A DNA stretch of 38,013 nucleotides from Perkinsus olseni (Eukaryota), in assembly GCA_013115125.1 (NCBI GenBank), contig JABANN010000336.1, positions 1 to 38,013 on the forward strand, given 5' to 3'. This document shows positions 24,601 through 30,114 of the stretch, in pieces. The translations under genes were made by a program, and so were the position numbers. The notes under the pieces were generated by a model. That model saw only the letters and a list, made by a program, of their open reading frames with translations, was not told where the DNA came from and did no database searches. Each line of letters starts with the position of its first letter. The first letter of the stretch is position 1.

Positions 24601-27600
24601 AATATGATATATATTATAATGTAATACCATTGATTCATATATTATCTTAGTCTCCAGTGTCTATTATTCATATATATGCCATGGGTTAATAAAGTATCTT
24701 ATAATTATATATATCTATTTAGTACTATATGGAGTATAATATTATAATTATTAATAACTAATAGTATATATTTATATATATATAGATTAATAAGATATCC
24801 TTATATTTATACCCTCTAGATCTATATTTATATTATATGTCATTATCTATTAAATACCTTATATTATATGTTATATTAATACCTAGTAATATTTATATAT
24901 TTATATATAGTTTTATTATAATTTATAGTAATGGGGCCTTAATAAATATAAATAATATTGTATCTAAACCATTATTAAATAATATTGATATGTTATAATA
25001 AGGATATATGATATACTAATACATGATATTATATTATATTAATAATACATATTAAACTATAGATATTAGGTATTTATAGTAATAATTATACTAACTATTA
25101 TTATTAGTATTATTAGTAAATAAGTATATATAATTATAAGTATTAATATAGAGTATATATATATATAAATAAGACTATGGAGAGGTATATACTAAATAGA
25201 TATAATTACTATTTATAATGTATTTATTAATGATTATTACACTCTATAGATATATATCATTATATTTATTAATGGTTATTCTATATATATTATTACTGGT
25301 ATATGGATCTAGTGATATTATAGTCTAACTAATATTACCATGACATTATATTATTTATTAATAGATTACCTATATATGTATTTATCACTAATATATATTA
25401 TACTAGATAGAGGGTATATAAATATACTATAATAATTATAAATAGAATATAATAATAGAATTACCTATAGAAATATATAGTTATATCATGGAATAATAGA
25501 TAAATATGGTGTATAGTAATATCTAATGATAATAGATAATAGTAAATCTAATAATAGAATATTTATAAAGAATAATATTAATGATAAACTACAGATATTT
25601 ATATGTCTAAACCTACTATTAAATATATATATTTATGATATTTAATTTATATGTAATCTTATAGTATATTTTAATTAATATAGTATAGAGAATAATAACT
25701 ATAGAAATATTATAAATATGAATATAATGTAGATAATCTATAGATAGTATGAATATAAATATAGTAATATAAGATATATTAAATAGAAATAAAGGTAATA
25801 TAAAATAAAAGATATGTATAAATAAAATAAAGATAATATTAAAAGTTTATTAATGAAATATAATATGGTATAATAGGGCCTTTATATATAATTACTATAT
25901 ATTAACTATGTATTAATAATATCATTTATCACTATATAGATAATATAAGATAGTAGATATTAGGTATTTATATATATATAAAGGTAAATATTATAATATA
26001 TATTATTAAGGTATCTAACTAGTATTATTATCTCCATAGTATTACCTATATCTTAGATTACTAACTATATATTTAATCATATAAATAAGGATATAATACA
26101 TAATAGTAGTTTATATAATATATTATTAATACTGGGTATATATAAATCTATAGATAATTAATAGTCTAGTTAGTTAAAGGAATATTATATTACTAATAAT
26201 ACTTATATTTATATCTAGTTAATTATTAATATATCTTAATATTTAGTAATCTATATATAATAGTATAGAGTTAATTATAATATTATCCTTATTAGATAGT
26301 TAGTTCTATATTATACCTAGTATTAATATTATCTATCTTTAAAGGGGGCCTTAGTAATATACTAATAATTAGATATCAATAAATACATATTATTCTATTT
26401 AATATATATATAACTATGTATTATATAATAGGAATATTAACTATATCTATGGAGATAAATAGGGATATTATATATAGACTATAATATAATTAATACTAGA
26501 TATACATTTATTAGTAATATAATTATATTAAATATATATTGATGATAATAACTATAATAATGGAGACCTTAGACTATTATATATATTTATATATACAATA
26601 TTAGATTAATAGTAAATTATAGGTATTTATTTAATTAACTTATTATATAATTATATATAGATCTAGAATATAATAGTAAATATGATAAATTATGGATATA
26701 TAATAGAATTAATAGATATTGTTATTTTATGAATATTAAATTATATGATATAATAATTAGTATGGTATATTAATATGAAATTATATAGAATATCTATGAT
26801 AATAAGTAGTAAATAAAGTTATAATTAGATATTGTAGAAATTAATATAATGTAATAATAAAAGAAATAAAACTATAGATATTTAATATAATAAATAATAT
26901 TATGACTATATAAAATAGATATCTATAAATACAGGTATAAAATAATATAGATATATATGTAATATGAAATATTAATAAGAAATAGTATTAATTTAATAGA
27001 TAGTTTTAATAATATATGAATATACTATTTTAACTATAGGTTGTGAGTAGAGCTATTAATCATATAAATAAATATGTATTATTGCATGCCTATATCTATA
27101 TATAGCACCAAGGCCATTGTTATACTATTATTACTTATATTTATATTATATATTTTACTATATATATTCATAGGTATACTATCTTAATATTAATTTAATA
27201 CTATATCTATATGCCTATATTATAATAATACTGGTTATGTATATGGATATTAGGTACTTTATCTAGGCATTAACTTATATTATACTCTATATCATATATG
27301 GTATTAATATTATATTGTTATATACTATATAGATTTATACAATACCTTAATATAATAACTAGATAAACCTATATATATACTTATTTAATATGTATTGGTA
27401 TTATGTAATAATATAGTAATATGATAGATAAAGAGATTACTAATAAATATATGTCCTTATTATATAATATTTAGTTATACCATATTGTTATATCATATTA
27501 ATATAGATTTATAATTAGATAGTTAATATATAAATAATAGAGTATATCTAGAGGGTATAAATAGTATATATATCTAAATATTACCTATACATAATTATGG

Positions 27601-28468
27601 CATTAAATATATATGGAGATATTATTAAGGATATATTATATACATTATGATAGATTATATTAACATAAAATATATATTAGATAATTATTAATGTTGGTAG
27701 GTCACCTTTTATATAATTATATACCTCTAAATATATATATATATTAGATTATTAATATCACTATTTATAATATTATAAGTTAGGTATTAATATTAAGTAT
27801 ATAATAATACTATAAATATTAATATCTATGGGTAATAATAAAGATATAATATATAAATACATACTCTATAGTATATTACTAATATTATAAGTATTAATAT
27901 AATACATAGTATATAGATTAAGATAAACTATAGTATATATTAAATAAAGTATTATGGATTGATATATTATCATATTGATAGTCTATAATTATATATATAT
28001 ATAATAATATGTATTAATTAATAATATAATCTAAGATAATATATATATTTATGACATTAATATTATAGGCATGTTATACCAGGATAACTATATATAATCC
28101 CTTTTACCATGATAATATAATATGGCTTATCCTATCCTTATTAATAGATAGTATGGTATATTGTATTATAAAATTATTATATTATTAATGGTTTATAAAG
28201 ACATATTACTTATTTATATATATAGTCTCCATAGATAAAGGTATATAATTATAATTATCTAGTTAGTATCTGGTGAGTATAATATATTTATAGGATATAG
28301 TAATTATATATATATTATATATTATAAAGGTAATAGTAAATATAATGATTAATATACTAATTAGACATATATAATCTAATATACATATTTTTATTATTAA
28401 TAGTAATATTTATATTATACCTAGGATTAATGGTTATATGGTTATAAGTTAATATATATTTATAATAA

Positions 28469-28511
28469 TAGCAGCACATTAAATATAATAATAATAGTAC
28501 TAGTGCTGCTA
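28469..28511. repeat. Short inverted repeat (hairpin)
   Basis: TAGCAGCAC 28469-28477 / GTGCTGCTA 28503-28511. Confidence 0.9.
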
Positions 28512-28576
28512 AATAATATATATTTAATATCAGTATAACTATATAAATCTATAAAGTATTATTAATAATATATTAT

Positions 28577-28632
28577 TAGAGGGCATATTCTATATAAATA
28601 AATAATTATAATTACCTTAACTATGCCCTCTA
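28577..28632. repeat. Short inverted repeat (hairpin)
   Basis: TAGAGGGCATA 28577-28587 / TATGCCCTCTA 28622-28632. Confidence 0.92.
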
Positions 28633-29138
28633 TATTTATATTTAATATTATAATATGATATATTACTAATGAGGGCATTATATTAATTATGATAGATTAC
28701 TACAAATATATACTTATAAATAGGTTATCATTATATTATATATTAACATATAGTATTGGTTATAATATTTCATATAAACTATATATATATAGTAATAATA
28801 ATAGTATATATAACCATAATATTACAATGATATCTATATACTTATAACAATACCATGATAAATTAATATAATAGTATATAACCATAAATATATATTACTA
28901 TGAGATATCCTTATTTTATTATATAGATCTAAACCATAGTATATTAATAACCAATAAACCTATAGAATAATATAATATTAGTGATATCCCTCTTATTATA
29001 TGGTATATATATAAATATATGATTAGTTATACATTATTATGGCATTATCATTATATAGTAAACCTAATATACTAATTTATATAGAATCCTGCATTTATAC
29101 TATGGTAATATATATTATATTTTATCAATACTGGCCAT

Positions 29139-29435
29139 ATGACTATAAATATAAATAATAAAATATATGGTTTAAATATGAATAATTATATTAAAAATAG
29201 ATATAGAATTTATGATATTCCATTATTAAAATATGATGAGATATTCAGATTTAATAATTATAAAGAATACATGAACTATACTATAATAGATTCAATAAAT
29301 AAACATATAAATTATATAAAAGATAGAGGACAAAGAAGAAATCATATACAAATTACTAATAACTATTTACAAAAAGAATATATTTATAGAAAATATATTA
29401 AAGCTTATGAATTATTTATTAGAAATATTAAATAA
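29139..29435 (+). CDS. Unassigned 98-aa ORF; possible highly divergent ribosomal protein (weak uS13-like motifs)
   Basis: Longest ORF in the track; ATG start; third positions mostly A/T; Arg only as AGA; no Cys; same strand as cob; contains none of the background hairpins or the CTATGGAG word. Confidence 0.45.
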   Translation: MTININNKIYGLNMNNYIKNRYRIYDIPLLKYDEIFRFNNYKEYMNYTIIDSINKHINYIKDRGQRRNHIQITNNYLQKEYIYRKYIKAYELFIRNIK

Positions 29436-30114
29436 ATTATATTATAATAATAAAACATATAGTAAATAATATATTAGTATAACATATATAACATAATATT
29501 AAAAATATAATAATAAATCATACATTATAATAGTTAAATTCATAAATATAATAAAATGTATAATAAAATAAAATATAAAATATTAATCATAATGACGGGA
29601 TACATAAGATTATATATATTTTTAATTAAATATAAAATAATATATGATATCATTTGATTATATTAAAGATTATATTATATAAAATTATTATAAATCATTA
29701 TGGATACTATATTATAAAATATGGATTATTATTACCTTAGGATTAACATATCATATTAATAGAGCCATATCAATAGAATAACATATAAATATAATAACAT
29801 AATATCAGTAATATCCACTATCTTAATATATATATATAGTAATACCTAACCTATTAATATTAATATAATTAGACTATTAATAGATAATAAATAATAATAT
29901 AAAATAATATATAGTGATATAATATAATAGATAACATTAAATATATAATATAATACAAGTTATAGTAAATATTAATCTTATATTAGACAATTATATATCA
30001 ATACAAACTATAATATAGATAATTAATAATAGTGAAATATATATAATTGATTAATAATATAATAATTGATAATATTAAATATAAAGTAATAGTACATATA
30101 AATAGAGAATATAG

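Follow-up and report, generated by a model that had tools for sequence, protein, structure and literature searches.

Organization of the Locus

The window analyzed here is a stretch of 38,013 bases of Perkinsus olseni DNA (14–18% G+C), in which an rRNA fragment, an open reading frame of 98 codons (called orf98 below), and cob all lie on the forward strand, with orf98 between the other two (Table 1). An earlier, sequence-only reading of this DNA had singled out the open frame as 98 stop-free codons from an ATG, and its coordinates and content are correct: the ATG is at 29,139, the TAA stop is at 29,433-29,435, and none of TAA, TAG, and TGA occurs within the 98 codons. Taken from stop to stop, the same frame has 108 codons and is open from 29,109. 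The fragment upstream of it, on the same strand, was placed by fitting the published P. atlanticus sequence of "RNA1" by eye (Gornik et al., 2022; PMC9550989); 31 nt separate its end from the ATG, the open frame begins directly after it, and its core (29,080-29,107) is single-copy in the window (one match when up to three mismatches are allowed).

Table 1. Features of the orf98 region (window coordinates).
Feature	Position	Strand	Basis
rRNA fragment "RNA1" (Gornik et al., 2022)	29,072-29,107	+	by-eye fit of the P. atlanticus row, Supplementary Figure S14 of PMC9550989
In-frame open extension 5′ of the ATG, 10 codons, back to the preceding stop	29,109-29,138	+	stop-to-stop ORF 29,109-29,435
orf98: ATG, 98 sense codons, TAA	29,139-29,435	+	sequence and ORF list
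GAG, the sole orf98 codon unused by cob in the window	29,238-29,240	+	codon comparison
AT-rich tandem arrays, periods 9-30, from the ORF end into the spacer towards cob	29,423-29,701		Tandem Repeats Finder
cob, nine segments, with seven AGGY/TAGGY join sites and one TAAC join site	30,115-31,191	+	Pfam Cytochrome_B, Cytochrom_B_N_2, and Cytochrom_B_C matches; three-frame translation

The region had also been described as lacking the repeats of the surrounding background. This holds for 29,168-29,422, where Tandem Repeats Finder reports no array, but the AT-rich arrays that start at 29,423 overlap the last codons of orf98. Self-comparison of the orf98 region by blastn returned only AT-rich, low-complexity matches of 65–75% identity, and tblastn found no paralogue of orf98 in the window (the next best match has an E-value of 1.3). 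With permissive settings, blastn covers 92% of the window with low-identity, AT-rich self-similarity.

Mitochondrial Character of the Window

We scanned the window with Pfam under genetic code 4. It has 160 stop-to-stop ORFs of 40 codons or more, and 150 of these were covered (the other ten have exactly 40 codons). Three ORFs matched cytochrome b, at 30,302-30,550 (E-value 6e-18), 30,578-30,817 (6e-5 and 4.5e-4), and 30,765-31,031 (1.1e-11); besides these, the scan gave two sub-threshold chance matches (MARCHF6_C, E-value 0.0084; DUF515, E-value 0.001) and no match to COX1 in any of the 150 ORFs. For cox3, we looked for a five-residue context motif, which occurred in the window at three unrelated places. 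Reading cob from end to end takes eight shifts: the four- or five-base sites start at 30,196, 30,239, 30,319, 30,521, 30,552, 30,583, and 30,776, and the TAAC site is at 31,032. The frameshift and amino-acid contexts agree with those in Supplementary Figures S10–S13 of PMC9550989. Within the segments, leucine is encoded only by TTA, valine only by GTA, and lysine only by AAA, and tryptophan is encoded five times by TGA and twice by TGG.

In Supplementary Figure S3 of PMC9550989, the rows for P. atlanticus and P. olseni have exactly the 100 bases that precede cob in the window; those for P. chesapeaki and P. marinus are unlike them and, in the cob alignment, depart from the window just 5′ of about position 30,124. 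Judged from its sequence, then, the window is part of a Perkinsus mitochondrial genome of the P. atlanticus/P. olseni type, with cob present and cox1 and cox3 not detected. No tRNA gene was found in the 38,013 bases, nor any Rfam match at the gathering score. A scan for sigma-70 promoters, which is irrelevant for this organelle, gave 34 sites, not above shuffled sequence (26.3 ± 4.6). Two trinucleotides are unusually common in the background, TAG (2.5–2.8% of trinucleotides) and CTA (3.0%).

Length of the Open Reading Frame

Stop triplets make up 10.5–10.8% of the trinucleotides of the window, and orf98 is one of just two ORFs (table 11) that reach 80 amino acids. To put a figure on the length we used Markov models of the window of orders 1, 2, 3, and 5, with 200 simulations each: an ORF of 108 codons or more appeared in a simulated 38 kb with a probability of 0.135, 0.03, 0.09, and 0.08, respectively, and one of 98 codons or more with a probability of 0.155–0.325. 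Nor is orf98 the longest open frame; the longest in the window, with 117 codons from stop to stop, lies at 1,515-1,868 on the reverse strand. Since simulated ORFs of at least 108 codons arise in 3–13.5% of the runs, and since a second, longer ORF exists in the window itself, length alone is no proof of a gene; by itself the length of orf98 is only marginal and not significant. The 117-codon frame encodes a hydrophobic product abundant in isoleucine, leucine, and tyrosine, has no Pfam match, and has 13 of its 117 codons outside the set used by cob, which is like the background; it looks like a chance ORF.

Codon Vocabulary of orf98

According to the published model (PMC9550989), Perkinsus mitochondria decode a restricted set of codons, and unused codons stall the ribosome and lead to frameshifts. 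Codon vocabulary is therefore a sharp test of translatability. We took the reference vocabulary from the cob gene of the window alone (349 codons in nine segments, each checked to be free of stops), because neither cox1 nor cox3 was found in the window; the results below are to be read with this single reference gene in mind, and with the fact that the test was picked after the ORF had been seen. The cob vocabulary consists of 31 different codons. orf98 has 23 different codons in use, and only one of the 98, a GAG, is outside the 31-codon set, leaving 97 inside it; the ten-codon upstream extension adds one more codon foreign to cob (GGC), so that the 108-codon frame has two in total. The sequence-only reading had called the codon usage cob-like, and these counts bear it out.

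Among the non-stop background trinucleotides of the window, 87.1% are inside the cob set and 12.9% outside; against this background, the binomial probability of at most one outside codon in 98 is 2.1e-5. Leaving out one segment of cob at a time places 7 of its own 349 codons (2.0%) outside the set. The window's other long ORFs lack such a vocabulary (13 of 117, 13 of 109, and 9 of 104 codons outside). The effect is also specific to one frame: over the 294 bases of orf98, outside codons number 1, 11, and 9 in the three forward frames and 13, 11, and 9 in the three reverse frames, and the probability that at most one of the 21 outside trinucleotides of the forward strand falls in the orf98 frame is 0.0023. 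Because the other five frames of the very same bases have 9–13 outside codons, local composition does not explain the vocabulary of orf98.

Shuffled sequence had been proposed as a check on the frame, and the answer differs between length, for which the simulations above give no more than a marginal result, and vocabulary. Among 20,000 dinucleotide-preserving shuffles of orf98, none remained open and none had at most one outside codon in 98 (the mean was 8.9% outside). Elsewhere in the window, none of 70,056 stretches of 98 codons (six frames, overlapping, outside 29,000-31,400) had at most one outside codon, the minimum being two, in 30 of the stretches; among GC-matched stretches the count was likewise zero (of 31,268). 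A cob-trained scan of the whole window (windows of 50 codons, in which no more than one codon was a stop or absent from cob and no fewer than 18 bases were G or C) returned five loci, four of them in cob, i.e., in the training data, and the fifth at 29,262-29,411, inside orf98. When the 63 ORFs of at least 50 codons were ranked by log-likelihood of cob codons versus background, orf98 came fourth, and the rest of the top six were pieces of cob. Adherence to the restricted codon set of Perkinsus mitochondrial genes, with cob as reference, is therefore seen in orf98 and nowhere else in the window outside cob.

These results bear on the plainest alternative, namely that orf98 is a stretch of the AT-rich spacer between RNA1 and cob that has never been coding, is not translated, and is open by chance. 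In such DNA, length alone does not make a frame like this a rarity, and the 117-codon ORF on the reverse strand, with its background-like codons, is an example from the same window; it also fits with chance that orf98 has no homologue or recognizable fold (see below) and that the comparison of four species revealed no fourth conserved gene (PMC9550989). What chance does not readily produce is the vocabulary, with one outside codon in frame against 9–13 in each other frame, and reached by no shuffle and by no stretch elsewhere. With the frame-specific vocabulary added, chance is a poor explanation of orf98, and we consider it unlikely, though with a weight that is not to be neglected.

Two further features of the codons deserve mention. 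Neither TGT nor TGC occurs in frame in orf98, which is weakly informative, TGT accounting for only 0.8% of the background trinucleotides. Moreover, the cob set is approximately the set of AT-richest codons for each amino acid, so that coding sequences of any very AT-rich genome would mostly conform to it; the test therefore shows "coding" and not "still functional here". In the spacer between orf98 and cob, a 42-codon open frame (29,538-29,663, forward strand) has 1 of its 42 codons outside the cob set; this is within chance, as, by our own estimate, the 160 ORFs examined should contain about three of this kind.

Predicted Product and Search for Relatives

The predicted product of orf98 has a mass of 12.4 kDa, a pI of 9.77, and a GRAVY of −0.85, with 18 lysines and arginines against 8 aspartates and glutamates (26 charged residues in 98), so the description "hydrophilic and basic" given from the sequence alone is accurate. 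Isoleucine, asparagine, tyrosine, lysine, and arginine are abundant, tyrosine and phenylalanine together account for 17 of the 98 residues, and cysteine, tryptophan, and valine are absent. AlphaFold2, run on the single sequence, gave a weak model (pLDDT 68, pTM 0.29) with one long helix at residues 28–97 and a pLDDT below 50 for residues 1–27; Foldseek found no match to this model in the PDB at E ≤ 10, a result to be read with the weakness of the model. In the ESM Atlas, the recognition value for orf98 is 1545, under the value of 2300 that is reached by 91% of proteins of known families, and the Atlas offered no usable match.

Sequence searches gave the same picture, and orf98 resembles no known family. 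We found no homologue by PHMMER at E ≤ 0.001 among 1,835,955,588 representative proteins, a search in which similarity to COX1, COX3, and COB was also absent, and none at E ≤ 1 in a word-indexed protein search covering lengths of 53–172 amino acids. In the JGI metagenomes, a protein pattern gave 377 matches, none of them confirmed, and a degenerate DNA pattern gave no match. Against Pfam, orf98 has no match to a mobile-element family or any other at E ≤ 10. The published comparison of four Perkinsus mitochondrial genomes reported conservation for cob, cox1, and cox3 alone, with no other coding sequence apparent (Gornik et al., 2022; PMC9550989), and our literature searches turned up no report of an extra ORF.

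Another reading is a coding relic, a former lineage-specific mitochondrial gene, or an inserted AT-rich coding sequence, that has lost its expression or function. A coding history can be read from the codon vocabulary, but present use cannot, and, the cob set being what it is, coding DNA of foreign, AT-rich origin fits as well. The mitochondrial genomes of Perkinsus are, in addition, reported to be highly rearranged, with much species-unique sequence and intergenic sequence that is barely shared, and no conservation of orf98 was reported across the four species (PMC9550989). Against a relic, the frame is fully open from ATG to TAA in DNA where every ninth or tenth trinucleotide is a stop, and 99% compliance with the vocabulary has been kept; any loss of function would therefore have to be recent. 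Nor do the searches point to a source, as no Pfam family (mobile elements included) and no protein (COX1, COX3, and COB included) resembles it. A relic is, in our view, rather improbable.

Structured RNA and uS13 (rps13) as Alternative Readings

A structured RNA or a fragment of rRNA that has escaped annotation, with the ORF incidental to it, is very improbable. The ORF does abut RNA1, and the sets of rRNA fragments of Perkinsus are described as incomplete in PMC9550989. However, Rfam gave nothing above noise in 27,500-31,800 (three matches, all to miRNA families, with E-values of 0.61–8), the predicted fold of the orf98 RNA is no more stable than those of shuffled sequences (z = −0.26; 35 of 100 shuffles were equally stable), and a frame-specific codon vocabulary is not expected from an RNA gene.

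Ciliate mtDNA retains rps13, and the sequence-only reading had seen a weak uS13 (rps13)-like pattern in orf98, which would make it a highly diverged mitochondrial rps13 (uS13m) kept in the mtDNA. The resemblance to uS13/rps13 (PF00416) consists of small size, basicity, and a short stretch containing RGQ: hhalign places HINYIKDRGQRR on the "HR.GLPVRGQ.T" segment of S13 with 33% identity over 12 columns. This alignment has a match probability of 0.25% and an E-value of 0.25, and it covers only residues 56–67, so that the conserved C-terminal basic motif (GLPVRGQ.T) is not found in register with the rest of the S13 domain. The by-eye alignment to E. coli S13 of the sequence-only reading was not reproduced as given. 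The check by profile search that had been suggested turned out negative throughout. Pfam (PF00416 included) and NCBIfam gave no family at E ≤ 10. Because the filters of HMMER hide weak matches, we built our own profile from the S13 genes of 10 bacterial genomes and searched with the filters off; orf98 scored −0.2 bits, a score equaled or exceeded by 64.75% of 2000 shuffles of its residues, whereas ten true S13 proteins scored 194–213 bits. A PHMMER search of orf98 against all PDB chains returned, at E ≤ 10, two unrelated matches (E-values 0.88 and 1.7), neither of them ribosomal and thus no S13 chain among them, and the Foldseek search described above, with its weak model, found no fold match.

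Another suggested check was a search for a nuclear uS13m. One is listed for P. marinus, a congener and not the species of the window, as Pmar_PMAR006975/C5KJY5 (S4 Table of PMC13623125), and the complexome data show the protein in mitochondrial replicate 1 (three gel slices next to each other) but neither in replicate 2 nor in whole-cell samples (S5 Table of PMC13623125); a copy in the mtDNA would thus not be needed there. With the profile, pairwise, and PDB searches all negative and a nuclear uS13m present in P. marinus, we rejected uS13 as the identity of orf98, for which the chance is next to nil; since these tests failed, identity as a ribosomal protein is not supported.

A Candidate Orphan Mitochondrial Gene

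The sequence-only reading had proposed an additional mitochondrial protein gene with uS13 as its possible identity; the identity is lost, and the extra gene stands as a candidate, the suggestion being strengthened by an independent, frame-specific coding signal of cob type. The reading that we favor is that orf98 is a genuine orphan mitochondrial coding sequence, translated still or until recently, for a small, basic, helical protein, and we would put its chances at about even. We infer that the vocabulary of orf98 reflects selection for translation, now or in the recent past. Under the published frameshift model, orf98, which is written almost wholly in codons that this mitochondrion demonstrably translates, could be decoded from its ATG through to its TAA with no frameshift. 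Its product would be a basic, soluble, and largely helical protein (12.4 kDa, pI 9.8), rich in tyrosine, asparagine, isoleucine, lysine, and arginine.

How orf98 compares with the known genes of Perkinsus mtDNA (PMC9550989) is instructive in both directions. It lies in the same genome as cob and on the same strand, and shares its vocabulary in 97 of 98 codons; like cob, cox1, and cox3, it is without cysteine codons (all Perkinsus mitochondrial genes are reported to lack them; PMC9550989), and it ends in TAA, as reported for cox3. It differs in encoding a hydrophilic product (GRAVY −0.85, against +0.81 for the product of cob), in requiring no frameshift site, in having no TGA codon, where the known genes read TGA as tryptophan, and in starting with ATG, which the known genes do not have at their 5′-ends (PMC9550989); the last two are differences and not exclusions. 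Unlike the three known genes, it belongs to no known family and has not been reported as conserved among the four species. The absence of a homologue, the absence of conservation in the published four-species comparison, the divergence of P. chesapeaki and P. marinus just 5′ of cob, the weak structure model and low ESM Atlas value, and an ATG start, which the known genes lack, all count against a live gene, and if orf98 is one, it is probably restricted to its lineage.

Lineage-specific orphan ORFs are familiar from other mitochondrial genomes, such as the unassigned "ymf" ORFs of ciliate mtDNA and the ORFans of bivalve mtDNA. orf98 is like them in being short, fast-evolving, compositionally biased, and free of homologues, in standing beside a conserved set of genes, and in being recognized only by its openness and codon statistics; as a candidate, it would be the first of this kind in the mtDNA of a myzozoan. 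A second point of comparison is the mitoribosome of Toxoplasma, which, as described in PMC13623125, contains short, nuclear-encoded peptides rich in aromatic and charged residues. The composition of orf98 is similar (17 Tyr + Phe and 26 charged residues in 98), a likeness that 86% A+T would give to any ORF, and the context is shared as well, in that both belong to mitochondria with fragmented rRNA and orf98 adjoins an rRNA fragment. The Toxoplasma peptides are, however, encoded in the nucleus, and no sequence similarity of orf98 to any PDB chain was found. That the product of orf98 binds RNA, or the mitoribosome with its fragmented rRNA, is speculative.

According to PMC9550989 and PMC13623125, only COB, COX1, and COX3 are encoded by the mtDNAs of myzozoans (apicomplexans, dinoflagellates, chrompodellids, and Perkinsus), and two later papers on P. 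marinus, PMC13623125 being one, give three mitochondrial proteins. A tentative extension of the favored reading, possible but on the doubtful side, is that orf98 encodes a fourth translated mitochondrion-encoded protein of a myzozoan, small and basic, which the frameshifting mitoribosome of Perkinsus would make from a gene that adjoins an rRNA fragment, maybe an RNA- or mitoribosome-associated peptide specific to P. olseni/P. atlanticus. If this were true, even a lineage-specific ORF would be an exception to the rule of three proteins only for myzozoan mtDNA; new genes could then arise or persist in the expanded spacers of Perkinsus mtDNA, and orf98 would offer a soluble, frameshift-free reporter of translation in a mitochondrion that skips unused codons. 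Should tests of RNA and protein prove negative, orf98 would instead be a useful cautionary case of coding-like relics in the AT-rich DNA of organelles. The codon-vocabulary scan, which in 38 kb picks out cob and orf98 alone, is a simple way to search the remaining spacers of the 41–95 kb mitochondrial genomes of Perkinsus for overlooked genes.

Sequencing Contigs over the Region

We also aligned contigs of four sequencing runs to 28,300-31,600 at 80% likeness: X7 (guessed to be RNA, organism A), X10 (organism B), X12 (organism C), and X13 (guessed to be RNA, organism D). Contigs of this kind show neither transcript ends nor strand. None of the four runs has a contig that spans orf98 itself (29,139-29,435), where there are short pieces only, at low depth from X12; this missing cover has no bearing on expression or conservation. 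The contigs of X10 contain a fraction of 0.38 of the words sampled from 27,500-32,500, yet only pieces of 21–64 nt align within 28,300-31,600, and no contig of that run falls on cob or orf98; the shared sequence must lie in the outer flanks, or some contigs were filtered out. A contig of X13 covers cob at 30,132-31,133, and a 33-nt contig piece of the same run equals 29,079-29,111 without a mismatch, over RNA1. One X7 contig of 1483 nt equals 29,572-31,053 exactly, starting about 540 nt 5′ of the first conserved codon of cob and ending inside the last cob segment, and a second covers 31,197-31,600 and beyond; the X7 contigs could be precursor transcripts or DNA.
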